Made by a program: the position numbers and the translations under genes | Shown here: positions 19,234-60,943 of the stretch, piece by piece | Layout of the letters: each line of letters opens with the position of its first letter | Numbering within the stretch: position 1 is the first letter of the stretch | Assembly (NCBI GenBank): GCA_965221455.1 | Contig: OZ244890.1 | Span: forward strand, 415,623 to 479,622 | Reading direction: 5' to 3' | Length of the DNA stretch: 64,000 nt | From: Gammaproteobacteria bacterium | Lineage (GTDB): Bacteria; Pseudomonadota; Gammaproteobacteria; Eutrophobiales; Eutrophobiaceae | The notes under the pieces: model-generated | The model's input: the letters and a program-made list of their open reading frames with translations, nothing else | Told to the model about the DNA's origin: nothing | The model's database searches: none

Positions 19234-19875
19234 CTATATTGCTTCTTCCACTTGATAACCATACTCTGCAGCAGCATGTGTGATCACTTCAAAAAAACTC
19301 TGCCCAAAGGAACGTGCAACATAAACATCAAGGCTATCTTCATTTAAACAATGTATCAGAACATTTGTATGAAATAGACTCGTGACCTTTGCTTCGTCCA
19401 CCTTGAAATGAGAAACATCCATATCAAGCATTGTGCCTTTACGCAGTACGTTGCGCACGTCTTTACCGGAAATACGAATAACACAACGACTATGACTTTG
19501 ATCAGTGATTGCTGCCTGCTCCTCATGTACCGCATTCCTGATAAGCATGTCCAATTCACGATTTTCTTTTTCAACAATCAACCAACGTTCGGGACCCATC
19601 CAGATTGCAGTAGTTTCACCGAATTGAATCGCACTACATGCGGTTCGTGAGGGTTTAACACCCGCTGCCTGCTCAATCGCAATTGCAACTGCATCAGCCT
19701 GCTCTTCCCATGCGGCTACCTGAATAATGGATAAGGCACGGCGCTCGTTAAATATAACGCCCGGATCATTATTCTTAATTTCACCGAAGTTACCGGTTTG
19801 GTAGATTTCGTGTAATGCCGCACGGCGTGTTGGTGTTGCTTCAGCCACGAAGTCTTTCTCCCTCTGGATCGACAA
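19234..19875 (-). CDS. sarcosine oxidase gamma-like subunit (SoxG/MgdD-like)
   Basis: The 213-aa ORF is the last gene of the four-gene soxBDAG-type block and overlaps the alpha subunit gene. Confidence 0.6.
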   Translation of the reverse strand: MSIQREKDFVAEATPTRRAALHEIYQTGNFGEIKNNDPGVIFNERRALSIIQVAAWEEQADAVAIAIEQAAGVKPSRTACSAIQFGETTAIWMGPERWLIVEKENRELDMLIRNAVHEEQAAITDQSHSRCVIRISGKDVRNVLRKGTMLDMDVSHFKVDEAKVTSLFHTNVLIHCLNEDSLDVYVARSFGQSFFEVITHAAAEYGYQVEEAI

Positions 19876-42970: not shown

Positions 42971-43082
42971 TCACAAAGCCCTGATAATTATTTACAGTTA
43001 TCATAATAAATATACTGTCATGGTCTTAATCCAGTCTAGTCACTTTTTACCTGAATACTTGTACCTACCTGGAGATATAGGG

Positions 43083-43128
43083 TTTACATTGTATGGCGTT
43101 TACATTGTATGGCGTTTACACTGCATTC
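43083..43128. promoter_or_regulatory. tandem 16-bp direct repeat (tttacattgtatggcg x2 plus a partial third) in a divergent promoter region
   Basis: The repeat is seen directly in the sequence. It lies between the minus-strand XRE-cupin gene (start 42970) and the plus-strand GATase1 gene (start 43156). Confidence 0.45.
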
Positions 43129-43155
43129 TTCATCTTAACAGGTCATGAAAACACT

Positions 43156-43881
43156 ATGAAAGCACTTGTGTTTCAACATATCGATATTGAACACCCCGGA
43201 ATCTTTCGAGACTTTATGCAGGAAGATGATATTGGCTGGGATACTGTTGAACTGGACCAGGGAGAGACTATCCCGGATTTCAGTCATTACGATGCATTGA
43301 TTGTGATGGGAGGACCGATGGATGTTTGGGAGGAAAATAAACATCCCTGGCTAGTCAGGGAAAAGCTCGCTATTCGACAAGCAATTGTTAACTTAAAGTT
43401 ACCTTTCCTGGGCTTTTGTCTTGGGCATCAACTGATGGCTGATGCACTTGGTGGCAAGGTTGAAAAAATGACTCAACCGGAAGTCGGTATTCTGGATATC
43501 GAACTCACTACAGACGGTGAAGCTTCCAGTCTATTTTCAGGCTCACGCAAAAAAATTAAAAGTTTGCAATGGCATGGGGCTGCGGTTACCGAAGCACCAC
43601 CTGACAGTCTTGTTCTTGCACAGTCTCCTGTTTGCGCGATACAAGCACTGCAATATGGTGAATCTGCCTTTAGTATGCAATGTCATATTGAACTGATTGA
43701 TTCCACTGTCTCGGATTGGGGAGGAATACCCGAGTATAAACAATCTCTCGAAAAAACATTGGGACCGGGTTCTTTGGATAAATTAAATAGTGCAGCTGAA
43801 AAATACATGTCCGACTTTAATCAAACAGCCGGATTGATATACAATAATTTTATCGACCAACTGAAAAAACGAACCGCATGA
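43156..43881 (+). CDS. class I glutamine amidotransferase-like protein
   Basis: The GATase1 nucleophile elbow LPFLGFCLGHQL is present. The start is taken as MKALVFQHIDIEHPG; the upstream extension to 43093 runs through the repeats. Confidence 0.7.
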   Translation: MKALVFQHIDIEHPGIFRDFMQEDDIGWDTVELDQGETIPDFSHYDALIVMGGPMDVWEENKHPWLVREKLAIRQAIVNLKLPFLGFCLGHQLMADALGGKVEKMTQPEVGILDIELTTDGEASSLFSGSRKKIKSLQWHGAAVTEAPPDSLVLAQSPVCAIQALQYGESAFSMQCHIELIDSTVSDWGGIPEYKQSLEKTLGPGSLDKLNSAAEKYMSDFNQTAGLIYNNFIDQLKKRTA

Positions 43882-45128: not shown

Positions 45129-45251
45129 ATGAATATTGTTGTCTGCGTTAAACAAATTCCGGATATTCGCTCTACAATAAAACCGAATGTCCAGCGCGGC
45201 TATATCGAAACAGAACGTTTCCACCGGTTTATCAACCCCGAAGATGAATGA
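45129..45251 (+). pseudogene. N-terminal fragment of ETF beta/FixA (about 40 codons), truncated
   Basis: The fragment translates to MNIVVCVKQIPDIRSTIKPNVQRGYIETERFHRFINPEDE then a stop. This matches the FixA/EtfB N-terminus (MKIVVCIKQVPD...INPYD). The rest of the gene is absent and is replaced by the repeat region. Confidence 0.5.
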
Positions 45252-45690
45252 GCTGTTGCACAGGCATTCTCCTTTCCAGTTTCCTTTGCGGGTGCGGTGA
45301 CTTTCCAGCTTCCTGTGCGTTTATGGCTTTGATCACTGCTTGTTGTCCGGTTCATGGCATACAAATGCAAGATCACTTTCACACGTTCTGCATAGCATTC
45401 GCACACCACCTGCAGCAAATCCATGATGTGTCCTCGTTGTAACCGCAGTCTCCAACGCTGTGCCATCATCATTAGTGCACCCATCGCACTTATATATTTA
45501 TGGGTATGCGTACAGCCGTTTGTGTAGTGAGTGAATCGCCCCTGATTTTGTAGACAGCAACGGTTCAGTCTATATGAGTAAAGGAGGTGTGCATGAATAA
45601 CAAAATCTATAAAGAATTTTCCGCACCAAAAGCGCTCCCCCTGCCAGGGGGAGTCCTCCGCAGGGGGTGGGGGCATATGAGTAAATCATC

Positions 45691-45894
45691 TGAACATCGT
45701 CATTCCCGCGAAAAATATGTCCTCGCAGAAGTTGTGTATTTTTTTGCGTCTTATAGATTCCCGCTTGCGCGGGAATGACGGGGTAGTGGTGCAGGAAGCG
45801 CGGAGCTTGAAAAGCAACCACCCCACCCCTGCGGGGCACCCCTCCTTGACAAGGAGGGGAGTGAGTTAGCCGACAAAGTTGAGTGACAGTAAAA
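45691..45894. repeat. 204-bp direct repeat, copy 1 (contains internal 13-bp inverted repeat cgtcattcccgcg...cgcgggaatgacg and the palindrome cccctccttgacaaggagggg)
   Basis: It is about 95% identical to 46010-46213. Confidence 0.85.
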
Positions 45895-45924
45895 TCGTCA
45901 TTCCCGCGAAAGCGGGGATCCAGA
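45895..45924. repeat. short palindromic element, variant A (tcgtcATTCCCgcgaaagcGGGgATccag)
   Basis: It is a member of the family cgtcatt-stem-aaa-stem'-aatccag. It has the same 5' half as the long inverted repeat inside the 204-bp units. Confidence 0.6.
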
Positions 45925-45940
45925 AAAACGAAGGCCTGGT

Positions 45941-45995
45941 GCCTGCCTTACGCTTTCCTGAGTTTAGTAGTGCACATGGGTGGAAAGAAAAGCCG
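45941..45995. repeat. about 55-bp repeat, copy 1 (gcctgccttacgctttcctgagtttagtagtgcacatgggtggaaagaaaagcc)
   Basis: A second copy at 47412-47477 is about 85% identical. The two copies bracket the degraded IS. Confidence 0.55.
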
Positions 45996-46009
45996 CTTAA
46001 TAAAATGAC

Positions 46010-46213
46010 TGAACATCGTCATTCCCGCGAAAAATATGTCCTCGCAGAAGTTGTGTATTTTTTTGCGTCTTATAGATTCCCGCTTGCGCGGGAATGACGG
46101 GGTAGTGGTGCAGAAAGCGCGGAGCTTGAAAAACAACCACCCCGCCCCTGCGGGGCACCCCTCCTTGACAAGGAGGGGAGTTAAGTAGCTGGCAAAGTTG
46201 AGTGACAGTAAAA
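46010..46213. repeat. 204-bp direct repeat, copy 2
   Basis: It is about 95% identical to 45691-45894, with a few point differences (g/a at three sites and the tail gtgagttagccgac versus gttaagtagctggc). Confidence 0.85.
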
Positions 46214-46500
46214 GCATTTCCCGCCCTAAAAGCTCTCCCCCTGCCAAGGGGGAGTGTAGTGGTCTAATAAATCCGTACCAGGTGATAGGTGATGAAATCA
46301 CATACTCATGGAGGTACGGCTCATGACAAAAGAACGAAAACACTTTACACCTGAGTTTAAACAAGATGCTGCCTTGTCTGGTAGTAGACCAGGACTACAG
46401 CATCAAAGAAGCCTGTCCAGTTGAGCAATTAAGCACGCACTATCGTCAAAGTGACGGCGATGATTGTCAGTAGCCAGCAGGGCTTATCGCAACAGTCACC

Positions 46501-46529
46501 TCGTCATTCCTGCGGAAGCAGGAATCCAG
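46501..46529. repeat. short palindromic element, variant B (tcgtcATTCCTGCggaaGCAGGAATccag)
   Basis: The flanks match variant A, but the stem has compensatory changes (cccgcg/cggg becomes cctgcg/cagg). Confidence 0.6.
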
Positions 46530-46701
46530 GTGCTGATTGCAACTCGTCTGAATTGCTTCGCTAAAGCTCTCCCCCTGCCAAGGGGGAGGGGGTTGCAGGG
46601 GGGAGGGAATGACGACTTACAACATCACCACAAACAATACAGACATTACCGCAACCAGCTTCCAGCATTCCATGTGACCGCCTGAAAGCATCAACCCCTG
46701 C

Positions 46702-46731
46702 CGTCATTGCGAGCAAAGCGAAGCAATCCAG
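46702..46731. repeat. short palindromic element, variant C (cgtcATTGCGAGCaaaGCgAAGCAATccag)
   Basis: The flanks are the same and the stem sequence is a third version. A reverse-orientation copy lies at 46894-46924. Confidence 0.55.
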
Positions 46732-46892
46732 TAAACTTTAAAGATAAGTCAGGATACCTTGAAATATTTGAAGATATGCAAAATGCCATTGCCAGAGAAA
46801 AATAAATTAAAGCTGACTCCCGCAAAAAGAAACCTGCCCTGATTGAAAAACACAATCCGGAATGGAACAATTTATATGAAGATATTGTTTAA

Positions 46893-47345
<453 letters not shown>

Positions 47346-47411
47346 TGAAAACAACCTATCGACTGGTACGGAAATACCGGACCACTTTAAGTACCCCGCA
47401 GGGGGGAGGGG

Positions 47412-47477
47412 GTTGTTAGTGCCTGTGCCCTGCGCTTTCCCGAGTTTAGCCATGCACATGGGTGGCAAGAAAAGCCG
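47412..47477. repeat. about 55-bp repeat, copy 2
   Basis: The sequence gcctgtgccctgcgctttcccgagtttagccatgcacatgggtggcaagaaaagcc is preceded by a gggggagggggttg motif that is also present at 46584. Confidence 0.55.
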
Positions 47478-47510
47478 GTGCAGTGAGCGTCCATGCTGTC
47501 CATGCAGCCA

Positions 47511-50500
47511 CTACTGCAAGAGTGCCTCGATATTCGTCCTGACCGCATTGAACGATGGATTGCCCGGAATGGTATCAAGCAGGCCCACCGCATCACGAAT
47601 ACCAAACAGGTAGCGACCCAGCAAGAGTCCGTCACTCTGGTTGGGATCACCGCCGCTGCCATCCACATCAAGACGACCGCTGGCGAAAGCCCCCGCAATA
47701 TTCGCCGTGACCGCACTGGCCGAGGGACTCCCGGGAATCGTATCAAGCAAGCCCGCCGCATCACGAATACCAAACAGGTAGCGGCCCAGCAAGAGTCCGT
47801 CACTCTGGTTAGGATCACCACCGCTGCCATCGACATCAAGACTTACCGCCGCTATCTCCGTCACCGTCACGGTCACGGTGGCCGCCGTGACGGTACGATA
47901 GGTGGTGTCGGTACTGGTCACCGTATGCGTGAGTCGCACGGTCTCGTCGTCTGTATCAGCGTCTTCCACTCCCGTCACGGTGATGGTTTTGGCGGTATTC
48001 CAGTCGGTGGTGCCAAACATCAGTGAGGTGGGACTCACCGTCACAGCAGCGGCATTGGAATGGGTCACGCTAATCGTCACTGCTTCCGTCGGTGGGGTAT
48101 TCAAGCGCAGCGTATACATGCCAGTCCCGCCACGTTCATGGACTGTCAGCGTCGTGGAACTCACGAACACGCCCGGGCCGTCGTTATCATTCAAGGTCAC
48201 AGCCACGGAGTCTATCGTCACGGCAGCCCCATTGTAGCCAGGGTCCGTACTTGTCGCTGTATGCGTGAGTTGCACGGTCTCGTGGTCTGTATCCGTGTCC
48301 TCAACACTACTCACCGTCACCGTCCGGGCACTGTTCCAGTTGTCTGTGGTAAACGTCAGTGAGGTGGCACTGAGGGTCACTGCAGTGGCATCGGGATTGG
48401 TCACGGTCAGCGTTACCGGCCCTGTCGGCCGGCTGCTCAGCATCAGGGTATAGCTGGTGCTGTCACCCCCTTCGGTGACATTCAGCGCGGTCGGCGACAC
48501 CCGCACACCCGCTACCGCCACCGGGTCGGAGGTCAGGCTATCGCCTCCCGCATTCGGATAACTCGCCATCACGCGCAACCACGTGCCTATCTGTGATTGG
48601 TCTGATGCAATCGTGTACGTGGCGGTATTATTGGTCCCCGGTGCGGCGGTAAACGGTCCCGCCGAGGCGGTCGCTGTCTGCCATTCATGGGTAATGGTGC
48701 CGACATCGGTAGTCGGTGAGGCGTCCGCATCGGTGACCGCGCCCGCTGTCAGCGTGCCGCCTGCTCTGGCAATGCCGGTGATGGGTCCGATGGCACCGCG
48801 ACGGTCAACCTGTACGCTATTGGAGAACAGGGTGTCGTTGAAATCCCCGCCCTGGGTCACCTGCACCCGCAGCCAGTGAGCATGGTCCGCCGCTTGCACC
48901 GTGTAGGTCGCGCTGGTGCCGTTCGTGCTGATATCTGTTGCGTTGCTACAGTCTTGAGTGGTACAGCGTTGCCATTGATGGGCGTTGATATTGACGGTCA
49001 ACGTGGGATGGCTCAGCGCACCGGCGGTCAAGATATCATCGACCCTGGCCGGGGTGTTGGGGGTACTGTCCTGGATGGCACCTAATGTCGCGGGCACCGC
49101 ATAAATATAGTTGTCGGTGGCACTCAGTTCACCGATGACTTGCCTGGTGATGGCTGCGACACTCGCTCCGATATTGCACAGCGGCGAGTTGGCTTGTGCG
49201 GTTTGTTCGGTGTTGGTCGTGGTCCCCGAGCGCACTCTTAAATCACCGCTGGCGGTACATGAACTGTCCAATAAGCGCACCCTGTTGCTGCCGGATGGTC
49301 GGTAAAACACGATTCCCGGTCCCGGGATAGCGGTCCATGAGAGGTTCGGACGGGACAGGTTGGACTTCAGGACTATATTGGTAGGGCCTGTCACGAACAG
49401 TGTTCCGCTATTCGGGGTCTCTCGCCCAGTTGTGATGAATCGAGGGGTTGTAAACGTGACTGTGCCGCCAGTGGTATCAATGTCCGTTAATTGCAGCCGA
49501 CCATCGCTGTTATTGCGGGTGAGTACCACGCTTGTGATGTCATCACTACCGTAGTTTGTCGCATCGGTATGCCCGGCCGGGCCGTTGACGAGATAGTTAT
49601 TCCAGAAGGTCGCACTCGGGCGGGCCTCGGTTTGCCCGTGGTTGGTGATGTCGGTGCCGTAGGCATTGGCACAATGGCCGCCCGTCCCGGCATTACAGGT
49701 GCGTGTCTGGTTCTTGTCGGTGATATTGCCCGCACTCCAGGCGCCCCAGCCGTCGTTGTAGTTTAGAATACCCACTGCCGTAGCCACAGACTGCTTGGTG
49801 ATGTCGTAAGGGGTGGATTGACACAGGGTACGCAGAGCCTGAGAATCTGATATGTTGGGGGTCACGCCGCCTGAGCTGCGTACCCTTGCGTCCCCGGTTC
49901 TACAATGAATCTCCACTATGTTGTCTACCCCAGGGAGAAATATCCGTCCCGGTCCCGGAATAGCGGCGAAGCCCCCGGTAAACGGGTTGTGCCAGTCGTT
50001 GTCGCCCGCATTCCAGGCGGCGAGGAAGTTGGCGAAGGCCGGGAACGCCCCGAGTAGGGTGGTTCGGAAAGGGAACGACAAGTTGAGGGGCCCTGACTGC
50101 CGGTCATACCACACCTTCAGCGTGGTCGGGCTGATAATCTCCGACATGCCTATCTGAGTCCACCCGCCGGTCGGAATCCCGGAATTCGGGTATAGGACCG
50201 GATTGGTGCCTTCCGGGCAGGGGGTGTTCGGGCCGGGAGTGCCGACGACGTTGACACTGCACGTCCGCCGGGTCGTCAGCGTCTCATTATTGATTGTCCC
50301 GGTGTAGGTGTACGATGCCGTATCCGGTACCGGTACGTCTGCGGACATCGGGGCATTGAACGCGGTATTTAGACTGGCTGCGGCAATCTTGTTGGCGTTG
50401 TATGAGTTGGTTATCTCTAGCGGGGTCGAGCAAAAGTTGGTGTTGCCTTCCAGCGTGTCCATCATCCCCGTCTTTATCAGGCTGGTGCCGGAGGTGGCGG

Positions 50501-51092
50501 GAGTGACAAAGGCAAGTCCGCTGGTACTGTTTCTTTGGCAGCGTACCTCGAATGCCTCCCCGTCCCGGTCATAGACGGTGGACGTGACATCCAATAGCGG
50601 ATTGAGCACCCGCCGAGCCACGGCAACATCAAAGCTGACACCTGTCGCAGTAGCTATGCACAATTCGTTTACGACATTGCTCATAGTATTGCCAACTCCG
50701 CTACCTGTACGGGAGGTGTTAGATGATATTAAGCATGTTCGGATGCCCGAAAGGACCGACTGGTCGGTCACGCCACTCGCGAAAGGACCACCACTGTGAT
50801 TTGTATGGACGTGGCGCCGAAGCACAAACCACGGCACGCTGACCCGATTCGCGTTGGGGTTCCCTGCCACGGTGGTGGCAAAAGTGGTGGTGCCGTCACC
50901 ATCCTCGGAGGTGGTGGTGACGGCGGGATCGCCGCCCAGATTATACTCGTAGCCGTCACCGCCCCCATCCGGGATGACGTAAAAGTCGACCAACCCGCGC
51001 GCATGGAAACTGTCCGAAAGTGGCGCCTGCGCCCGTGCCGCCGGGCTTGCCCATGCCGTCATCAGGGCAACAACGACCATAACCGCCGTCAT
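47511..51092 (-). CDS. large secreted Thr/Gly/Asn-rich repeat protein with C-terminal tandem dockerin-like Ca-binding repeats
   Basis: The likely start is at 51092 (MTAVMVVVALMTAWASPAARAQA, a signal peptide with an AxA cleavage site); the ORF finder gives 51263. The body has tandem roughly 95-aa beta-sandwich-like repeats (..LTFTTDNWNSARTVTVSSVEDTDTDHETVQLTHTATSTD..). The C-terminus has two nearly identical roughly 55-aa repeats (LDVDGSGGDPNQSDGLLLGRYLFGIRDA.GLLDTIPG). The GC content of this gene is far higher than the flanks. Confidence 0.7.
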   Translation of the reverse strand: MTAVMVVVALMTAWASPAARAQAPLSDSFHARGLVDFYVIPDGGGDGYEYNLGGDPAVTTTSEDGDGTTTFATTVAGNPNANRVSVPWFVLRRHVHTNHSGGPFASGVTDQSVLSGIRTCLISSNTSRTGSGVGNTMSNVVNELCIATATGVSFDVAVARRVLNPLLDVTSTVYDRDGEAFEVRCQRNSTSGLAFVTPATSGTSLIKTGMMDTLEGNTNFCSTPLEITNSYNANKIAAASLNTAFNAPMSADVPVPDTASYTYTGTINNETLTTRRTCSVNVVGTPGPNTPCPEGTNPVLYPNSGIPTGGWTQIGMSEIISPTTLKVWYDRQSGPLNLSFPFRTTLLGAFPAFANFLAAWNAGDNDWHNPFTGGFAAIPGPGRIFLPGVDNIVEIHCRTGDARVRSSGGVTPNISDSQALRTLCQSTPYDITKQSVATAVGILNYNDGWGAWSAGNITDKNQTRTCNAGTGGHCANAYGTDITNHGQTEARPSATFWNNYLVNGPAGHTDATNYGSDDITSVVLTRNNSDGRLQLTDIDTTGGTVTFTTPRFITTGRETPNSGTLFVTGPTNIVLKSNLSRPNLSWTAIPGPGIVFYRPSGSNRVRLLDSSCTASGDLRVRSGTTTNTEQTAQANSPLCNIGASVAAITRQVIGELSATDNYIYAVPATLGAIQDSTPNTPARVDDILTAGALSHPTLTVNINAHQWQRCTTQDCSNATDISTNGTSATYTVQAADHAHWLRVQVTQGGDFNDTLFSNSVQVDRRGAIGPITGIARAGGTLTAGAVTDADASPTTDVGTITHEWQTATASAGPFTAAPGTNNTATYTIASDQSQIGTWLRVMASYPNAGGDSLTSDPVAVAGVRVSPTALNVTEGGDSTSYTLMLSSRPTGPVTLTVTNPDATAVTLSATSLTFTTDNWNSARTVTVSSVEDTDTDHETVQLTHTATSTDPGYNGAAVTIDSVAVTLNDNDGPGVFVSSTTLTVHERGGTGMYTLRLNTPPTEAVTISVTHSNAAAVTVSPTSLMFGTTDWNTAKTITVTGVEDADTDDETVRLTHTVTSTDTTYRTVTAATVTVTVTEIAAVSLDVDGSGGDPNQSDGLLLGRYLFGIRDAAGLLDTIPGSPSASAVTANIAGAFASGRLDVDGSGGDPNQSDGLLLGRYLFGIRDAVGLLDTIPGNPSFNAVRTNIEALLQ

Positions 51093-51318
51093 GCCCGCGC
51101 AACGATAAACTCGTGCATCATCATGCAACCCGTGCAATAGCCCGTTCCGCCTCTCGCCGTCCACACAACCCACAATGCCACCCAACTGACACCTCAAACG
51201 CCGCAAAAGACCAAATTGCACACCCAACACATCCGCAGTAAGCTGCGCTTCGTATTCGGTCATAGCAATGTTGCGCCTGGTGGCGGCGCGGTCTGCGCCA
51301 GTGTTGCGGTCTACCGAG

Positions 51319-51358
51319 GGTGCTGTGGTGCTGTGGTGCTGTGGTGCTGTGGTGCTGG
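51319..51358. repeat. octanucleotide simple-sequence repeat (GGTGCTGT)x4 plus one imperfect unit
   Basis: The repeat is seen directly in the sequence. It lies about 230 nt upstream of the predicted start of the secreted repeat protein. Confidence 0.8.
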
Positions 51359-51718
51359 CACTTGCCGCGCAAGTGCCAGCGTGGTGGTGTGTTTACGTGA
51401 TTTTATCAACATATGTCAGTTCCTCTCCCGCGAGCTATTCAGATTGCCCACGTGCCCCTCTCACTCGGCACTGTACATTATCGTACTGACTGCCTCAACC
51501 TCAACCACTGTTCCATGGCAATCTGGCGCCGATGTTGCAGTGCTGCCACTTTTGGCGTAATACCAGCGTGATGGTCCGTTTACGTGGTTTTGTCGGTATC
51601 TGATGCTCTCTCCATGTCCAGTAGAGTGCAACGGGTTTTTGCCATCACTTCCCTTGCTTACCCGGTGTAACACATTCACCACGCTTGAAGTGGCTCGAAG
51701 ATCGGGGGCAGGTCACTC

Positions 51719-52411: not shown

Positions 52412-55400
52412 TCAAATATTCAGCGCCTGTAATTTATTCTTGCTGAAAGCCTCTTGCAGAGACTCATATGTGACACATTCGTAATTATCCATGCGTGCTA
52501 TCAGTTGACCGTTCTGATCGATGAACTCAATAGTGGCCAGGACCCGGTTTTTTGAATGTCCAATGACATTGACATTGATCATGCAATCATCCTTTGGAAA
52601 GGTTTTTTGGAATTGTCTATATTCGCCAATTGCTGTGGGTAAAGAACCCACACCCGATACCTCGAAGCACCAGAGGATCATCAGTTGAAAACCACTATCC
52701 AATACCAGTGGATCGGCAAGCCATGAAGAGCGTATTGGTTTTACCATCCAGTTTGCGGGTGCGCTCGCGGTTTTAACCTGTGCCGAAATACCTTCAGCAC
52801 TACATGCGTCTATGGTGACGATCCCCTGTAACAGTGTGTCGTGGAACAGTCTGTTTGAAGAATAGATTTCGTTTGTCGCCTGCGAATATTCACCGTTAAT
52901 CGCTTGAGTACCCGGGGCTTCTTGCTGAATTTTATCTGTGGTTAAAATAATTTCTGCACGGGCATGTCGTACTTTACCGCTGCGTAACTCGACAAGGATG
53001 ATATTTCCGTCTTCATGTTTGCGCGGACTTCCGGCGAGAATATCAAGTTCAATCGTCTCGTCCATATCCAGAGTGATGCCTTTGAGGATACGGAGATTTC
53101 TAAAGCCGAGATAGTTCAGGCCGGGATTATTATGTATTGCACCATGGGCAAGCCATTCGCATATCATTGCCACAGGTAATACGGCTTGACTATTGATCAC
53201 ATGTGATTTCAGAAAATCATGATCCGCCACATTCAGGTTCCTTGTAAAGGACGCCTGCATATTGTCCACAGGAATTTCTTCTACATATCCCTTTGCATTG
53301 ATATTTTTCTCCGGGACTTCTGTGGCACCTGACACGACAACTTCAACAGGACCCTGGTGTGTGATCTCTTGCATGAGATAGTCAGCACCCGCTTTCAGGT
53401 CAATGATACCAATCCCTTCATTTTTAAAGATTTTCTTTAATGCGGGGGTGACCATGCCGCCGTCCCACGGCCCCCAATTAACACTGATGATCCGACAATC
53501 TTTACGCAAGGTTGCCTGTTGTTGTGCGATTTTATTCAAGGCTTCATTGGCAACCGCATAATCACACTGGCCTTTTCTGCCAAAACGTCCTGTCGTTGAT
53601 GAGAACAGGACCATGATCTTTAATTGATCATTTTCAGTTGCTGCAAGTAAGGAATCCAGTCCTTTAACTTTAGTCGCATAAACTTCTGAAAATTGTTCTC
53701 TGGTTTTATCTGCGATGAGTTTGTCCGCCAATACGCCTGCACCATGAACAAAACCGGCAATATGACCAAGGGTTTTCCTGGCTTCGTCAATTGCCGCGAT
53801 AACTCCAGTTTTATCTTGTACATCGACTGCGCGATACATTACTTTTACACCAGTCGCTGCAATGCGTTGTAGATTGTTGCGGATTTCTCTAGCAGTGAGT
53901 ATTTTGTTACAGGCTGCATTTAATTCTTTCGGCTTTATTGCCGTGGGCGTGGCACTTTTGCTGTCTTGCGCAAGCAGTGCTTTTTTAATTTCAGCTTCTG
54001 TGCCGAGTTCCGCCAACCATGCAGCTTCCGGTTCAGGTTGCTCACTACGTCCCAGTAGTAACAAATTCGTTTGACAGGTTTCCGCCAATGCCAACGCAGT
54101 CCTGGCTGTAACGCCGCGTGCGCCGCCAGTCACGACAACAACATCCTGTGCATTCAGTGGTGCAGAAATTTTATTTCCATCAATCACCGCTTCGTTGAGG
54201 TCGAGTATGTAACGTTGATTATTCACGATCCCAACTTCCAATACGCCCTCTGACAAGCATTCATCAACGACATTATTCGCCAATTTCCTGATGTTATTGC
54301 TCATTTTAACATCAATGGCTTTGCATGAGACTCCCGGCCATTCTTTATCAGCTGTTTTAATCAGGCCTGCGATACCACCGGAAATCGGGCAAGTCTTGCC
54401 AACCCCGTTTAGTCCAAACCTGCCGCCCATTCGGGTGACGCTGGCGAGCAGCGCTGCCCCGGATTTTCCTGCCAGGCGTAATGACTCGCCGATGCGTTGA
54501 ACCAGCATAAAACTTTCCTGCATAAAGGTCTGTTCCGGAGTCTCGGGGGTCAAGATGATCAAGCCTGCCGGCGTTTCATCATATTCGCCGGGCACAGCAG
54601 CAAGCGATATCATCCTGGGCTTGAGACCTTTTACCTTGAGTGATTCACAAATCGCCTGAGTGAATACGGGAGTGTCTGTCGTTACCCAAACAATCGCATT
54701 CTCTTGCAGAGATAGTTTTTCCTGTGCTTGTGTTAATGGCACTGAAGACAAAACTTGTCTATTAATTGTCGTCACGGCTTTTTGGTTCCCGGAACCCATT
54801 TCAGTTACATTTTCCCGGGATGTTATTGCATGCGTCGTTGCAGGTGAACTTGCCAGCATGTGATCAACAATTTGTTGCAGGGTTTGTAATGTCCCTAAAT
54901 CTTCAGGTTTTACTGCAGGTATTGCCGGAATATTTTCCTGCAGGGCAGATAAAATTTCCACGCGCTTGATTGAATCAATGCCAAGATCTGCTTCAAGATT
55001 CATATCCAGATTGAGCATATCCACCGGGTAACAGGTCTTGTCTGCAACCACCTCAAGTATGACTTCAGCCAGTTGTTCCCTATCTGCAGCGGCAGTTGCG
55101 GACGACATTGTTTGTGCAAACCTGCCGCCACTACCTGCGGCAAGGAAATCGACGATTTGTTGTAACGTTTGTAAATTAGCCAAATCTTCCGGACTGACCA
55201 TCGGCGCTTCCGGCAATCGCTCTTGCAGCGCTGATAAAATCTCCACGCGCTTGATCGAGTCTATACCTAAATCGGTATCCAGACTCATCTCCAGACTCAA
55301 CATATCCATGGGATAACCGGTTTTATCACTCACGACTTCCAGTAATACGTCGGCAAACAAGTCTTTATTTGGTATCGCATTTTTAGAACCCGGGACTGCA

Positions 55401-58400
55401 CCCGGAATAATCGCCGGTGCTGTCGTTACCACTTTTGGCGTGGCGGCGACAATGAATTCAACAATATTTTGCAAGAACTGGAATGTGCCCAACTCTTCCG
55501 GATTTACCGTTGGTGCGCTGGGTAACTTTTCCTGTAATGCAGATAAAATTTCCACGCGCTTGATTGAGTCGATACCCAGATCGGTATCCAGACTCATGTC
55601 CAGACTTAGCATTTCCAGCGGATAACCCGTCTTCTCTGCGACTACTTCCAGTAAAATGCTATGGACTTCTTCATCCGCATGAATGGTTTTTTCTGTTTCT
55701 ACAATTTCAATCGTGGGCTTGTCCTGTTCAATGAGCCGAGATGTCGCGGCAGGCACTCCGGGGGATAACTGCTCCGGCGATGCCGGTGCCTCTTGCATCT
55801 CTGGAGATCGTGTTGTGATTGGTTGTGCTTGTACTGAATCGAGACCTGATAACTCTTGTTGTTGTCGCAGAAATTGGGAAATCGTTAGCTGCGCTGTTTC
55901 CTGTCCCTGCAAATATTGCTGATGTAGTTTCGCAGTTTGTTCCTGCATCTTCTGCAGGGCAAGTATACTTTCACGGGTAGTCTCTAATGCGTTTTGTCTC
56001 TGCAGGCCTGTGGTTGTGACAGCAGGTGTTTTTTGTGTCGCAGTGGTACTGTTCGGAACCGGATTTTTCATTTTTGCGTCTGCTGACATTGGCTGTGGTA
56101 TCGGCGTTTGCGATATTGGCGTTTGGATTCGTGGTTTTATTTGTGGAGTTCTTGCCGGACGTTTTTCCACAGGCTTCATGTAGTTTGTGCCGGATAATGA
56201 CATTGTCATCGCCGGTTTTTTATCAACGGCGTTTTGATTTTCTTCGGCTGCTAACGAATGCAGATAACCTGCATCCCACTGCGATAGATCAATACCCTTA
56301 TCCAGCACTGCAAGGCCAGCGAGTAAATTGGCGAGATCAACTTGACCATGTCGTTTACCGGAAGAGTTATCCAGTGACAGGATTTGAAATTCATTCACAT
56401 CATTTTTATCGCTTATGATCGCTGTCACCAAACCGCTCAAACGACTCCCCGGACCAACTTCGACAAAAGTGCGGACGCCTGCGGCGACCATTTTCCCAAC
56501 TTGTTCAACAAACCTGACAGGATGCGCAAGTTGTCCTGCAAGTAGGCGTCTGATCTCATCTTGATTACCAGGGTATGCATCAGCCGTTGTATTCGCCAGC
56601 ACGGTCATCACACTTTTGTGCAATTCAATCCCCGCCAATGCCTCTGCAAAAGGACGTTCTGCATCGGCAACAAACTTACTGTGGAACGCTGCCGAGACAG
56701 GTAATTGTGTCACACGTAACTTGCGACGTTTACAAAGTTTGATGGCTTTTTCTATTTGGTCGGTGGCACCGGATAAAACAATTTGTTTGGGTGCATTATG
56801 GTTGGCAATCACCAAATCGAGTTTTTCTGCCTGAATCAAGGATTCAACAACGCCTGGCTCAGCCAGTACCGCCAGCATTGAACCTCGATCCCCTTCGCCT
56901 TCCGCCATTAGACGGCCGCGTAGCAGAGATAATTTATGTAATGCTGTTTCATCGAATACGCCCGCAGCACACAAGGCAACCAGTTCGCCGTAACTGTGAC
57001 CTGCGGCAATATCCGCCTTGAAACCAAAACTCTCAAGTATACGCAAACCAGACAAACTTACGGCACCAATCGCTGGTTGTGCATGATATGTGTGCCGCAG
57101 AGTCTCTTCCTGAGCTTGTCTTGCCGTATCGTTGAATACAGGAATCGGGTAGATGATATCAGTCAGTCGGGAACCGTGTTTGCTTTCGCCTTTACAGGCG
57201 TTGGCGTTACTCAGGATATTATTAAACTGTGGAAACTGGCAGGCTAAATCGCGCAGCATGCCGACATACTGTGCGCCTTGTCCCGGGAATAATAATCCTG
57301 TTTTGTGTTTGTGTGCACCGCAGGCATAGCTGGCGCCTACAGGTAATTGCCAGAACTTTTTCGATGGTTCTTCTGCCAGCATCTTACTGATATTTTTGAT
57401 CAGTAGTTGTAAATCTGTTTTATCTTTTTCCATGATAAGTATCAGTCGATGTTTTTTCTTCGCATCAAACTTTGCACACGTGCTTGCCGCCAGTGCTCGA
57501 TATGCAGACCATGATTGTTTATCGTCGATTGCATTTAGCCGTTCTGTCAACGCTGTTTGCGAATCCTCGCTCAAGGCAATGAGCAATACGCGACCGTCCC
57601 AATCCATTTCTGCATTATTATCTTCAGCCTCTTCAAGCACGCAGTGGAAATTACTGCCGCCAAAACCAAATGCACTCAATGCTGCACGTCGTCGATGTGA
57701 ATCACTGGAAACCCAGGGGCGTTTCACTGTGTTGATATAGATTGGTGCTTTCCCCGGTTCCAGGGGTATCAGTGGTTGATCGACCTTGAGCGTTGGTGGT
57801 AATACTCTATGCTTCAGCGCCATGATTGCCTTGATCATCCCGGCAACACCTGCCGCAGATTTGGTATGACCAATCATTGACTTCACCGAACCCACAGCAC
57901 ACCAGGTATCTTCTGCATTCGCTTTGCGGTAAACCTGATCAAGCGCGTTTACTTCAACCGCATCCCCGACAGCGGTGCCTGTGCCATGCGCTTCAACGAG
58001 TTCTATTGACTCAGGAGAAATACCGGCTTGTACGTAGGCATCTTCCAATGCTTTAATCTGGCCTGCGCTACTTGGTGCGTAAATGGCATTGCCACGACCG
58101 TCACTTGAAGTACCAATACCTTTAATCACGGCATAAACTTGATCGCCATCCCGTTCAGCATCCGCAAGACGTTTTAATATAACCACTCCCATACCTTCAC
58201 CGAGGACAGTACCATCGCCATTCAATGCAAATGGACGGCTATCGCCTGTCGGTGAAAGCGCAGGTGTTTTACTAAAACACATATACATAAAAATATCGTT
58301 GAAAGTGTCCAGACCGCCAGCAATGACCATATCAGAACGACCGGCAGCGAGTTCCAGTGATGCCAGATGTATCGCACCTAATGAGCTTGCACACGCGGCA

Positions 58401-59077
58401 TCCACTACGCAATTGGTGCCACCGAGATCAAATCTATTCGCAATACGGCCCGCAGCGACATTGCCTAACAAACCGGGAAACGAATTTTCTTGCCAGGGAA
58501 CATAACTATCGGAAATTCTCTGCACAACATCTTCCGCAGTTTCCGGATCAACACCGGCTTTCGCTAAAGCGTCGCGCCAGACCGGATGTCCCAGTCTCGC
58601 CCCAAGCGGTATTACCAATTCGAGTGTGCCGGTCACTCCCAGTATGACGCTGGTACGATCACGGTCAAATTCTTTACCATCACCAACATCTCTGCCGGTG
58701 GCATAACCGGCATCAAGTAAAGCTTGTCTGGCAACTACCATACCGAGTAATTGTGTGGTGTCGGTGGCCTCAATATTATTCGGACTTATGCCGTACTGCA
58801 GTGGATTGAAATTTACCGGATCAATAAAACCACCACGTCGACAGTAAGTCATATCGGGAGTCTTTTGATTGGCATCAAAATAATCCTCAGGATTCCAGTG
58901 TGAATCGGGAATGTCTGTGATGGCATCAACTCCCTCTCGAACATTCGACCAATATTCACTGACATCACCTGCCTTCGGGAAAAGACAGCCGATACCAATG
59001 ACGGCTAATGGAGAGGCCTGATTCCTGTTTTCCTGTTTCTTTTCCATAGTCATTTGATCATGATAAATTTTGTTCAA
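52412..59077 (-). CDS. PfaA-like polyketide/PUFA-type synthase: KS-AT-ACPx3-KR-DH
   Basis: The 2221-aa protein has, in order: a KS N-terminus (AVIGIGCLFPKAGD, with the active Cys in a DAACASSLGA context), an AT domain (GHSYGE), three tandem ACPs (each LGIDSIKRVEILSALQE), a KR domain (VVVTGGARGVTA), and a C-terminal PKS-type DH domain (HDFLKSHVINSQAVLPVAMICEWL). Its start overlaps the enoyl reductase gene stop. An alternative start at 59053 (MTMEKK) removes the overlap. Confidence 0.85.
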   Translation of the reverse strand: MNKIYHDQMTMEKKQENRNQASPLAVIGIGCLFPKAGDVSEYWSNVREGVDAITDIPDSHWNPEDYFDANQKTPDMTYCRRGGFIDPVNFNPLQYGISPNNIEATDTTQLLGMVVARQALLDAGYATGRDVGDGKEFDRDRTSVILGVTGTLELVIPLGARLGHPVWRDALAKAGVDPETAEDVVQRISDSYVPWQENSFPGLLGNVAAGRIANRFDLGGTNCVVDAACASSLGAIHLASLELAAGRSDMVIAGGLDTFNDIFMYMCFSKTPALSPTGDSRPFALNGDGTVLGEGMGVVILKRLADAERDGDQVYAVIKGIGTSSDGRGNAIYAPSSAGQIKALEDAYVQAGISPESIELVEAHGTGTAVGDAVEVNALDQVYRKANAEDTWCAVGSVKSMIGHTKSAAGVAGMIKAIMALKHRVLPPTLKVDQPLIPLEPGKAPIYINTVKRPWVSSDSHRRRAALSAFGFGGSNFHCVLEEAEDNNAEMDWDGRVLLIALSEDSQTALTERLNAIDDKQSWSAYRALAASTCAKFDAKKKHRLILIMEKDKTDLQLLIKNISKMLAEEPSKKFWQLPVGASYACGAHKHKTGLLFPGQGAQYVGMLRDLACQFPQFNNILSNANACKGESKHGSRLTDIIYPIPVFNDTARQAQEETLRHTYHAQPAIGAVSLSGLRILESFGFKADIAAGHSYGELVALCAAGVFDETALHKLSLLRGRLMAEGEGDRGSMLAVLAEPGVVESLIQAEKLDLVIANHNAPKQIVLSGATDQIEKAIKLCKRRKLRVTQLPVSAAFHSKFVADAERPFAEALAGIELHKSVMTVLANTTADAYPGNQDEIRRLLAGQLAHPVRFVEQVGKMVAAGVRTFVEVGPGSRLSGLVTAIISDKNDVNEFQILSLDNSSGKRHGQVDLANLLAGLAVLDKGIDLSQWDAGYLHSLAAEENQNAVDKKPAMTMSLSGTNYMKPVEKRPARTPQIKPRIQTPISQTPIPQPMSADAKMKNPVPNSTTATQKTPAVTTTGLQRQNALETTRESILALQKMQEQTAKLHQQYLQGQETAQLTISQFLRQQQELSGLDSVQAQPITTRSPEMQEAPASPEQLSPGVPAATSRLIEQDKPTIEIVETEKTIHADEEVHSILLEVVAEKTGYPLEMLSLDMSLDTDLGIDSIKRVEILSALQEKLPSAPTVNPEELGTFQFLQNIVEFIVAATPKVVTTAPAIIPGAVPGSKNAIPNKDLFADVLLEVVSDKTGYPMDMLSLEMSLDTDLGIDSIKRVEILSALQERLPEAPMVSPEDLANLQTLQQIVDFLAAGSGGRFAQTMSSATAAADREQLAEVILEVVADKTCYPVDMLNLDMNLEADLGIDSIKRVEILSALQENIPAIPAVKPEDLGTLQTLQQIVDHMLASSPATTHAITSRENVTEMGSGNQKAVTTINRQVLSSVPLTQAQEKLSLQENAIVWVTTDTPVFTQAICESLKVKGLKPRMISLAAVPGEYDETPAGLIILTPETPEQTFMQESFMLVQRIGESLRLAGKSGAALLASVTRMGGRFGLNGVGKTCPISGGIAGLIKTADKEWPGVSCKAIDVKMSNNIRKLANNVVDECLSEGVLEVGIVNNQRYILDLNEAVIDGNKISAPLNAQDVVVVTGGARGVTARTALALAETCQTNLLLLGRSEQPEPEAAWLAELGTEAEIKKALLAQDSKSATPTAIKPKELNAACNKILTAREIRNNLQRIAATGVKVMYRAVDVQDKTGVIAAIDEARKTLGHIAGFVHGAGVLADKLIADKTREQFSEVYATKVKGLDSLLAATENDQLKIMVLFSSTTGRFGRKGQCDYAVANEALNKIAQQQATLRKDCRIISVNWGPWDGGMVTPALKKIFKNEGIGIIDLKAGADYLMQEITHQGPVEVVVSGATEVPEKNINAKGYVEEIPVDNMQASFTRNLNVADHDFLKSHVINSQAVLPVAMICEWLAHGAIHNNPGLNYLGFRNLRILKGITLDMDETIELDILAGSPRKHEDGNIILVELRSGKVRHARAEIILTTDKIQQEAPGTQAINGEYSQATNEIYSSNRLFHDTLLQGIVTIDACSAEGISAQVKTASAPANWMVKPIRSSWLADPLVLDSGFQLMILWCFEVSGVGSLPTAIGEYRQFQKTFPKDDCMINVNVIGHSKNRVLATIEFIDQNGQLIARMDNYECVTYESLQEAFSKNKLQALNI
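54860..55680. repeat. three tandem roughly 300-bp repeats encoding the ACP domains of the PfaA-like gene
   Basis: Nucleotide-level repeats (for example cgcgcttgattgagtc.atacc.agatc.gtatccagactcat) recur at about 54961, 55247 and 55557. Confidence 0.8.
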
Positions 59078-60734
59078 TCACATTGGTTTTGAGCGGTGTT
59101 ACACGAGTTAACTGGTCAGGGAGTTTTACACCCTGATTACGTAAAGTATTCGTACGTGTCACCACAGTCGCACCATAAAGAATATTCATGGCGACTGTAT
59201 CAACCGTTCTATTGGTCGGCTCTGCCAACCAGGAATCCTTGCTCCATTCATTGAATGCACCCATCGAGGGACCACACCAAACCTGGTAATCCACTTGTCT
59301 TGATTCTTCGCCTGAGTTGGCCCATCGTGACGAGAGTCCCAGGTACCAGCGGAAGATCAGTGCCATTTTATGTTTAGGGTCTTGATCGGCTTTAATAATT
59401 TGTTCCGGATCACGTTCATCGAAAAAATCTCGCGTCAGTTGCCAAATGTCTGTCAGGGGTGCCTTGAAAATTGTTCCTTCCAATGAGTTCCTTTCTTTTT
59501 CCGGAATAGCATCAATGGAATCGTGGGTCTGATAGAGTTCATAAAGTTTGTTACCACGCATGGCAAACATGGTGCCGCGTTTTAGGACTTGTAACTTCAC
59601 ACCCATTTCAAACATATCAACCGCAGGTGCCATTATGACATCGGCTTGTTGTGCGTCGGCCAACATTCTGCGCACGATGTCACTGCTACCTGATTCAACG
59701 CAGGCTTGATTGACCGTGCCGGTAACAATGTACGCAGCCCCCATCGAAAAAGCCGCCGCCGCAGATGCCGGCGTCGCGATACCGCCTGCAGCTCCGACTC
59801 TGAGTGGTTTAGCGTAATTGAATTCTTTTTGTAAACGATCACGCAGTGCCATCATGGTCGGTAATAACGTAATTGCAGGTCGGTTATCGGTATGCCCTCC
59901 GGAATCCGCTTCTACTGTAAGATCCTGTGCCATTGGTATTTGCGCAGCAAGCGATGCCTGTTCTTCCGTAATGTCTCCGGACGCAACCAATTGTAACAAC
60001 ATTTCTTCCGGCGGTGGGCTGAACCATTTGCTGGCAATTTCAACACGAGAGGCTTTGGCAATAATTTTGTTTGGGGTTTCTATATCGCCGGATGTGTTTC
60101 TGTGAATATCATGAACACGATAACGAACAGTGGGTAAAGTGAGTTTCATGTAGGCTGATGTTTCAATAAGCCGGATCCCATACTTCAGATACAGGGAAAC
60201 AACAGCGTCTTCGTGTCCCTTTTCATTAGGGGAAAAAATAAGGTTTAAACAATAAGGCTTTGGCGATACAGTTTCTGTGAGATATTGCACTGCTTTTTCA
60301 ATTTCACTGAGCGTCAAACCTGCCGCACCGAAAGAAGCCAATAACTTTGCATTTGCTGCTGCTTCAACGAGTTTGGTCGAGGCGATCCCGTTCGCCATGG
60401 AACCACACATATAGGGGAAACGTAGATGATGATCTTCACAAAAGCTGACATCACCCAATTGACGCGGTGAACTGGCAGGAGAAAATCCAGTTAATGACAG
60501 GCCGTCTGAATCAATTCGTCCGCCGATGTTTATTTGGCCTTGCTGGCTTACCATAAGCTGTTGGTTTTGATCTTGTAATACATAAATAGCCTGGCTCAAA
60601 TTACCAATAGCCTTGCGTATGTCTGTGTCTTGCTTGATAAGTGTTGAGGTATCGCCAAACCAATAACCCAACGCTGCATTTGTCCTGCTGATAGCCTTGT
60701 TTTTTGCCAGTGGTATTTGTGTTATTTGAGTCAT
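59058..60734 (-). CDS. PfaD-type enoyl reductase (FMN-dependent, 2-nitropropane dioxygenase/FabK-like TIM barrel)
   Basis: The conserved AAGGIATPASAAAAFSMGAAYIVTGTVNQACVESGSS segment is present. The start is taken at 60734 (MTQITQIPL), which has an RBS aggaa; the ORF finder gives 60788. Confidence 0.8.
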   Translation of the reverse strand: MTQITQIPLAKNKAISRTNAALGYWFGDTSTLIKQDTDIRKAIGNLSQAIYVLQDQNQQLMVSQQGQINIGGRIDSDGLSLTGFSPASSPRQLGDVSFCEDHHLRFPYMCGSMANGIASTKLVEAAANAKLLASFGAAGLTLSEIEKAVQYLTETVSPKPYCLNLIFSPNEKGHEDAVVSLYLKYGIRLIETSAYMKLTLPTVRYRVHDIHRNTSGDIETPNKIIAKASRVEIASKWFSPPPEEMLLQLVASGDITEEQASLAAQIPMAQDLTVEADSGGHTDNRPAITLLPTMMALRDRLQKEFNYAKPLRVGAAGGIATPASAAAAFSMGAAYIVTGTVNQACVESGSSDIVRRMLADAQQADVIMAPAVDMFEMGVKLQVLKRGTMFAMRGNKLYELYQTHDSIDAIPEKERNSLEGTIFKAPLTDIWQLTRDFFDERDPEQIIKADQDPKHKMALIFRWYLGLSSRWANSGEESRQVDYQVWCGPSMGAFNEWSKDSWLAEPTNRTVDTVAMNILYGATVVTRTNTLRNQGVKLPDQLTRVTPLKTNVIEQNLS

Positions 60735-60943
60735 CTTGATATTCCTGCGAAACTTAAATACATTCCTCCCCAAAACCGGATAAATCAAGGATCTGGTAAA
60801 GAAACCGGGTCGACCATTATATATGAATTTACCCTGGCAGAGGCGCTCTTCAGCAGTCTTAATCCGCAGGCGGAAACAAGTTCCATCCCAAAACTCCAGT
60901 GTAATGAGGATGTTATTTATTAGTTGTTGATTAATATAATAAG

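Follow-up and report, generated by a model that had tools for sequence, protein, structure and literature searches.

The window analysed here, a 64,000-nt stretch of a Gammaproteobacteria bacterium genome (assembly GCA_965221455.1, contig OZ244890.1, positions 415,623 to 479,622), carries a tract of tandem octanucleotides in the 5′ leader of a minus-strand gene whose product, P0001, is a predicted secreted repeat protein. Our tentative reading, for which we see somewhat less than an even chance, is that the tract is a translational phase-variation element of a known kind, in which copy number would set the frame between an upstream start codon and the main open reading frame (ORF). This supposes that the upstream start, ATG 51412, is transcribed and translated, that the length of the tract changes at this locus at a useful rate, and that such changes affect protein output. 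A neutral microsatellite is almost as probable.

Tandem Repeats Finder places the tract at 51319–51357, with a period of 8, 4.9 copies and a 100 per cent match to the unit GGTGCTGT. A repeat search recovered the same tract as four perfect units and then a fifth with one mismatch (51343–51358, GGTGCTGG), so the four units and imperfect fifth described in the first-pass annotation are confirmed. The unit reads ACAGCACC in the sense orientation, the gene being encoded on the minus strand. Within the window this is the sole repeat with a unit of four to ten bases and at least four perfect copies. The two-unit 16-mer, with up to three mismatches allowed, matches at the tract alone, and shuffled sequences lead one to expect 0.47 matches. 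Control DNA from unrelated bacterial loci (1.29 Mb) held fifteen comparable repeats, fourteen of them with 6- or 9-nt units and only one with a non-triplet unit. Since the tract is unique in the window and non-triplet repeats are rare in the control, it goes beyond what chance would be expected to produce, and the rarity of perfect non-triplet repeats in bacterial DNA counts against a neutral origin. It also has the formal hallmark of a repeat switch, being a perfect tandem repeat whose unit (8 nt) is not a multiple of three. No single-stranded structure of the octamer repeat that might promote slippage was found on either strand.

The leader is indeed GC-rich, as had been reported (50–60 per cent, against about 43 per cent in the surrounding genome), and it contains a 5′ module of about 72 nt twice, in copies 187 nt apart. 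The module includes a motif resembling a Shine–Dalgarno (SD) sequence, a start-codon position, a hairpin region and an octamer seed. The proximal copy reads, on the sense strand, GGGAGAGG-N9-ATG TTG ATA AAA TCA CGT AAA CAC ACC ACC ACG CTG G, with hairpin and repeat after it. The distal copy, a degenerate one, still has the CACGTAAAC core and the SD-like motif; its ATG is gone, which is what one would expect of a gene start in decay. The duplicated cores (51376–51407 and 51563–51594) are 84 per cent identical, and they account for two similar leader segments pointed out at first pass. Those segments are real, and they are copies of the family's 5′ gene-start module and not obviously regulatory boxes. 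Neither of the downstream starts has comparable initiation signals: ATG 51263 has no SD sequence and ATG 51092 has only an adjacent GGGC, while GGAG-type SD sequences with 7–11 nt spacing are common at other genes in the window.

The frame opened by ATG 51412 reads MLIKSRKHTTTLALARQVPAPQHHSTTAPQHPR and closes at TAG 51313, two codons past the repeat; the frame of the main ORF is open from 51392 onwards. As it stands, with five units, the upstream frame encodes 34 aa. Four or seven units (−8 nt or +16 nt) give one continuous ORF from ATG 51412 into the main protein, and six units (+8 nt) give a product of 131 aa in the third frame that ends at TGA 51123 and overlaps ATG 51263. With one unit deleted, the window sequence is open throughout and aligns in a single frame with the N-termini of the paralogues P0002, P0012 and P0014, which argues against neutrality. 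The geometry of a frame switch is present (an SD-like motif and ATG 51412 ahead of the repeat, a TAG after it, and fusion at four or seven units), and the coding statistics of the leader, which bear on whether the repeat lies in a translated 5′ part, are weak.

We propose that a young microsatellite may have arisen by slipped-strand mispairing in the 5′ leader of P0001, which belongs to a lineage-specific family of large secreted repeat proteins, and that the copy number of the tract would set the frame between the conserved upstream start (SD GGGAGAGG with ATG 51412) and the main ORF. At five units, ribosomes starting at ATG 51412 would translate through hairpin and repeat (...PAPQHHSTTAPQH) as far as TAG 51313, 48 nt before ATG 51263. 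The long form would then be OFF, and protein would arise only via inefficient internal initiation at the SD-less ATG 51263 or at ATG 51092. Loss of one unit, or gain of two, would fuse the upstream frame to the main ORF (ON), and gain of a single unit would yield the out-of-frame 131-aa product overlapping the main start.

How close the repeat lies to the gene depends on which start is used. The first-pass annotation had put the distance at about 230 nt, which holds for ATG 51092 (226 nt) and not for the database start, ATG 51263 (55 nt). A change of 8 nt at 55 nt from an annotated start is unlikely to be wholly silent, a further point against neutrality. The same annotation had suggested a slippage switch of a secreted protein. 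This idea is partly supported, in that the repeat is perfect, non-triplet and rare and lies in the leader of a secreted multigene family; a promoter-spacing mechanism has to be abandoned. No −35/−10 hexamers flank the tract, and 40 nt exceeds any functional spacer, which rules out a promoter-spacer switch.

The P0001 family has at least six members, all on the same 2,504,188-bp contig: P0001, P0002 (1863 aa), P0003 (867 aa), P0012 (3182 aa), P0013 (485 aa) and P0014 (1600 aa). A protein search with the N-terminal 830 aa of P0001 returned same-genome paralogues only. HMMER comparison of the leader translation with 1.84 billion representatives returned P0001 and one new paralogue, P0014, and nothing else. 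A profile search with the aligned leaders gave no matches, but it also missed the known paralogues and is therefore uninformative. P0003 and P0012 differ at many positions and so represent separate loci; for that reason we dropped the idea that the long ORF of P0012 is an artefact of TGA read as Trp.

Annotated starts across the six paralogues fall at three positions (MLTK, MTE and MYALAG). P0002, P0012 and P0014 are annotated from MLTK..., at the ATG homologous to 51412, and are open for 108–138 codons from there to the signal-peptide segment. P0013 is annotated from the ‘MTE’ ATG (equivalent to 51263) and P0003 from a Met 22 residues ahead of the signal peptide. The upstream start is thus in frame in three of the six family members, with the other three annotated further downstream, a pattern that matches a family of independently ON and OFF members. 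The conservation of the SD-like motif and the ATG at the start of the module, with that ATG serving as the annotated start in three paralogues, also speaks against a neutral tract.

Conservation is strongest in the downstream part of the leader. The motifs ‘MTE’, ‘LHRL’ and ‘CVDG[DE]xRN’ are conserved in one frame, with in-frame indels only, in five paralogues, and among them everything between ATG 51263 and the signal peptide can be aligned in that frame without a stop, which is awkward for an untranslated leader. In the window copy this part would be open by chance in 12 per cent of dinucleotide shuffles, and the full 309-nt leader would be open in one frame in 5.8 per cent. These sequence comparisons make it probable that the leader codes for protein from ATG 51263 onwards to the signal peptide. 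The segment between ATG 51412 and ATG 51263 is variable in length and frame, and its translation is putative, though plausible. Identities in the leader and in the body of the paralogues are decoupled: P0012 and P0013 share 92 per cent identity in the leader and 70 per cent in the mature N-terminus, while the window copy shares 43–49 per cent with other paralogues in the leader and 52–70 per cent in the mature part. The paralogues therefore look like mosaics, which suggests recombination or gene conversion among copies.

The neutral alternative, slightly the less probable of the two, holds that the tract started as a CACCACAG seed and grew through replication slippage, within a leader that is untranslated and weakly constrained. 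The true start would be ATG 51263 or ATG 51092, the MLTK N-termini would be gene-caller extensions through stop-poor GC-rich DNA, and the repeat would have no meaningful effect on expression. A number of observations favour it and weigh against the frame switch. Open frames are common in the leader sequence: in 47 per cent of shuffles no stop interrupts the segment between ATG 51412 and ATG 51263, and a second frame (coordinate mod 3 = 0) is stop-free between 51405 and 51123. Neither codon statistics nor GC content at third codon positions (GC3) is coding-like. Codon log-odds are −0.01 (51263–51093) and −0.17 (51392–51264) bits per codon, compared with 0.39 ± 0.16 in the ORF, although the in-frame values of the leader still exceed its off-frame values, and GC3 is 0.56–0.60 in the leader compared with 0.68 in the ORF. 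In translation, the leaders have many R, H, C and W residues, as is typical of non-coding GC-rich DNA. Immediately 3′ of the repeat, P0014 has TATPAQTAPPG (the closed frame of the window) and P0012 has RNTHADRCAT (the main frame of the window); because the two read different frames, the amino-acid sequence at this point is neither conserved nor under selection.

Other points against a switch concern the family and the transcript. The expanded tract is absent from P0002, P0012 and P0014, the three paralogues whose translated leader covers the segment, and the distal module of the window holds an unexpanded seed, as the neutral account would have it. By our own estimate, three of six members in frame is not clearly different from chance or neutrality. 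If translation began at ATG 51412, over 100 residues would precede the signal peptide, and the extended −10-like site at 51408–51400 could start an mRNA downstream of ATG 51412 and so exclude that codon. Finally, the tract is short. A published screen accepted three or more units for tetra- to octanucleotide repeats within ORFs (PMC7383803), and the five units (40 nt) found here are above that threshold but fewer than in hepta- and octanucleotide switches that have been validated: Haemophilus influenzae has at least 11 copies in its hmw repeats (PMC12721329), and 12–15 in their octamer form (PMC3309571). A mere five units also fits a neutral origin.

A scan of metagenomes for four or more tandem copies of ACAGCACC identified seventy-five loci (L067–L141; a raw count for this octamer alone, without control octamers) with unrelated flanks, a GC content of 34–76 per cent and up to about eighteen units. 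Near-identical contigs formed eight groups, and in two of these the contigs differ only at the repeat. L074 and L117 (6.4 and 5.4 units) are 99.6 per cent identical over 2467 nt, with a single gap of one 8-nt unit; L106 and L129 (4.75 and 6.75 units) are 98.6 per cent identical, with a single gap of two units. These differences by whole units show that tracts of this sequence and length are mutable in nature. In the contigs concerned, the repeat lies upstream of an ABC ATPase and paaK, and across the scan the same octamer precedes ordinary genes of several kinds (ABC ATPase, paaK, LytS-type kinase, MBL hydrolase), which means that its presence alone does not imply an evolved switch. The occurrence of an identical repeat at unrelated loci, several of them just upstream of ordinary genes and some with neutral-looking polymorphism in copy number, is a point for the neutral alternative. 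A metagenome scan for the repeat with its own flanks, allowing one to eight units, gave no matches.

Several of the loci with the same octamer come from a low-GC (about 36–39 per cent) population: L085 (2465–2517), L102 (4378–4456, minus strand), L087, L108 and L110, all from the same or sister samples (Ga0209185/Ga0209186). In two cases the repeat ends 4–7 nt before the start of a gene, one for a LytS-type sensor kinase (followed by a LytTR regulator) and one for an MBL-fold hydrolase. This could be a recurrent repeat of the 5′ untranslated region (5′-UTR) in that population.

The structure of the leader RNA bears on another possibility, which we consider unlikely: a 5′-UTR rheostat as in hmw1A/hmw2A, in which the length of the repeat, together with the hairpin and a G/U-rich partner, would alter mRNA folding, processing or transcription in a manner graded by copy number. 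The repeat lies upstream of either candidate start (55 nt from ATG 51263, 226 nt from ATG 51092) and downstream of promoter-like sites, though these occur at chance frequency; a 1.5-kb scan found three sigma-70-like sites against 1.6 expected. A perfect 12-bp inverted repeat adjoins the tract, is found once in the window and folds as a stable hairpin in both the minimum free energy (MFE) and centroid structures. The repeat RNA pairs with 51231-51165 better than with every ORF window of equal size, and in the MFE structure of the leader some of the repeat is paired with that stretch. Precedents include an octanucleotide upstream of a large secreted adhesin gene (PMC3309571) and a repeat hairpin in a 5′-UTR that is processed by RNase III (PMC12721329). 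Yet 10 per cent of shuffled targets of the same composition pair as well, the z-score of the leader fold is only −1.4, the five units fall far under the hmw minimum, and P0001 has no homology to HMW/TpsA proteins. With no −35/−10 pair bracketing the tract, the spacer version of a transcriptional effect is excluded here too.

Two other roles for the hairpin were considered. As an intrinsic terminator it was ruled out, there being no T-run after it on the gene strand. The palindrome carries a sigma-54-like string (TGGCAC-N5-nnGCA), but the same loose pattern occurs nine times in the window, so the string is not distinctive and a sigma-54 promoter is a mere idea.

We give very little credence to an artefact of assembly or consensus calling, or to the tract being part of a different kind of element (an iteron array, recombination site or small RNA gene). 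Assemblies can miscount repeats, and the palindrome, with its sigma-54-like string, could be a protein-binding site. A tract of 40 nt is, however, far shorter than any read, and its units are perfect; they stand head to tail without spacers, unlike iterons, and the single-stranded repeat has no structure on either strand. Rfam gave no family match in the leader or elsewhere in the window, which disfavours a small RNA gene; a weak sub-threshold hit to WsnRNA46 (46702–46923) falls in the REP-like repeats described below. Coordinates of the tract and of the features around it are listed in Table 1.

Table 1. Features of the P0001 locus (positions within the 64,000-nt window)
Feature	Position	Strand	Remarks
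IS3-family integrase fragment (rve, rve_2, rve_3 domains), truncated	46899..47348	+	3′ border of the island
GC-rich island	47350..51700	.	53–66% GC in a genome of about 43% GC; holds the gene and its leader
Gene for 1250-aa predicted secreted repeat protein	47511..51263	-	lineage-specific N-terminal domain, two fn3_6-like domains, tandem 56-aa C-terminal module
Signal-peptide-like or signal-anchor segment MTAVMVVVALMTAWASPAARAQA	51024..51092	-	best-conserved N-terminal part among paralogues
G/U-rich stretch, possible partner of the repeat RNA	51165..51231	-	−37.2 kcal/mol; not significant against shuffles
ATG of database ORF P0001 (MTEYEAQ...)	51261..51263	-	no SD; ‘MTE’ conserved in five paralogues
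TAG closing the ATG 51412 frame at five units	51311..51313	-	34-aa product
Octanucleotide repeat	51319..51358	-	sense strand CCAGCACC + (ACAGCACC)x4, 40 nt
Perfect 12-bp inverted repeat with 3-nt loop, GCTGGCACTTGC-GCG-GCAAGTGCCAGC	51354..51380	-	3′ arm is the first, imperfect repeat unit
Proximal module core (CATATGTTGATAAAATCACGTAAACACACCACCACGCTGG)	51376..51415	-	
Extended −10-like site TGATAAAAT	51400..51408	-	overlaps codons 2–4 of the upstream frame; consensus match
Candidate upstream start codon (MLIKSRKHTTTLALARQVPAPQHH...)	51410..51412	-	homologous to the annotated MLTK start of P0002, P0012 and P0014
SD-like motif GGGAGAGG	51422..51429	-	9 nt ahead of ATG 51412; only good SD in the leader
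Sigma-70-like promoter candidate TTGAGG-16-GATAAT	51477..51504	-	upstream of ATG 51412; consensus match only
Distal degenerate module	51528..51602	-	SD-like GGAGAGAG kept, ATG to ATA, weak hairpin, single CAGCAC seed in place of the repeat

The ORF at 51263..47511 matches the database protein P0001 exactly. Its signal-peptide-like segment starts at ATG 51092 and ends in ARAQA. The N-terminal region of about 800 aa has no match in Pfam, and over the whole protein Pfam reports fn3_6 alone; haemagglutination-activity and TPS domains were not found. Judging from the signal-peptide-like segment, the fn3_6-like domains and the tandem C-terminal modules, the product is predicted to be of the secreted or surface type.

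Only the C-terminal repeat domain has relatives outside the genome (30–49 per cent identity), found in large multi-domain proteins of many uncultured marine metagenome-assembled genomes (MAGs). An fn3_6-like repeat domain at 47844–48518 carries the motifs TFTTDNWN and VTGVEDxDxDxE. Its relatives (loci L001–L066) are mainly giant proteins of uncultured marine MAGs, including Latescibacterota, Dehalococcoidia, Poriferisodalis and the Amphimedon symbiont AqS3; many of the lineages with such relatives are known sponge symbionts. At the C-terminal end, a 168-nt tandem duplication (47530–47842, 1.9 copies, 88 per cent match) encodes the module DVDGSGGDPNQSDGLLLGRYLFGIRD...TIPG twice. The motif of this module resembles a dockerin or calcium-binding loop and has no match in Pfam.

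The integrase fragment at the border of the island suggests acquisition or rearrangement associated with an insertion sequence. Between folD and the island (45200–46900) lies a cluster of REP-like elements with the recurring translated strings VIPAQAGIYKTQKN, DSRLRGNDGVVV and SFPRKRESI. The other flank has a DUF4124-like ORF and then the PfaA/PfaD polyunsaturated fatty acid synthase cluster (52412–60788). The remainder of the window is ordinary chromosome, with folD, ilvA and genes resembling the N-methylglutamate (methylamine) pathway; the latter, at 19841–42022, include type III glutamine synthetase-like and glutamate-synthase-like genes, amidotransferases and a sarcosine-oxidase alpha-like subunit. 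Together with the Pfa cluster, they hint at a marine methylamine-using bacterium. The window also holds a perfect 16-nt tandem repeat (GTTTACATTGTATGGC x2.4, 43082–43120) that overlaps the initiation codon of a glutamine amidotransferase-like ORF on the plus strand (43093..43881); two ATGs in different frames result, at a distance of 16 nt.

If the tract is a true switch, contingency loci would extend to an unusual octamer unit and beyond small-genome pathogens, to a chromosome of 43 per cent GC with a pfa cluster and N-methylglutamate-like genes. The tract would also offer a way into a family of giant secreted proteins, lineage-specific and acquired horizontally, whose repeat domain is common to many uncultured marine and sponge-associated bacteria. 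One can go further and imagine, though we think it improbable, a three-state selector in this genome-unique multigene family. Four or seven units would give a long form with an N-terminal extension, membrane-anchored or secreted, five a short upstream ORF that closes ahead of the main start, with low or re-initiated expression of the protein, and six an upstream ORF that overlaps the main start and occludes it. The hypervariable segment between MLTK and ‘MTE’ would have one and the same function across the six or more paralogues, and the population would display different combinations of giant proteins. Such an arrangement would be a contingency system of the Opa type, set in a methylamine-using bacterium that is free-living or symbiotic and not a classical pathogen. 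Even a neutral tract is of practical use, in that it draws attention to the inconsistent annotation of N-termini in this family (three start positions among six paralogues).

Should it prove to be a real switch, the locus would belong to a known class while being homologous to neither opa nor hmw. In the terms of genome screens for repeat switches (e.g. of hsd genes, PMC7383803) it qualifies formally provided that ATG 51412 is the start; that criterion is purely formal, and the segment is a putative ORF here. By analogy, the closest system in geometry is Neisseria opa, and the closest in unit size and type of gene is hmw1A/hmw2A, with its octanucleotide form in H. influenzae biogroup aegyptius.

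The opa genes form a multigene family with CTCTT pentanucleotide repeats in the region coding for the leader peptide. As in opa, the unit found here is non-triplet and lies in the 5′ coding or leader part ahead of a mature secreted protein. Its copy number would likewise set the frame, with out-of-frame states stopping early, and there are several paralogues, some in frame and some not. In contrast to opa, the unit is of 8 nt and not 5, there are only five units, and among the paralogues the tract is known in P0001 alone. The repeat also falls in a long basic N-terminal extension, whose translation is putative, before a hydrophobic segment and not in a canonical signal peptide, and P0001 has no sequence homology to Opa. 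To our knowledge, the source organism is not known as a user of contingency loci.

Upstream of hmw1A/hmw2A the repeats are of 7 bp (ATCTTTC), and in biogroup aegyptius there is an octanucleotide, GCATCATC, in 12–15 copies (PMC3309571; PMC12721329). The tract described here resembles these in unit size (hepta- or octanucleotide), in its place in the leader of a gene whose secreted product is very large, in being probably transcribed and in its association with a stable RNA hairpin. It differs in having 5 units and not at least 11, in preceding a gene for an unrelated protein that is not an HMW/TpsA adhesin, and in showing no significant pairing between the repeat and a G-rich partner. Moreover, the hmw effect is graded and acts via folding of the 5′-UTR and RNase III (PMC12721329), whereas the geometry here suggests an effect on the reading frame.

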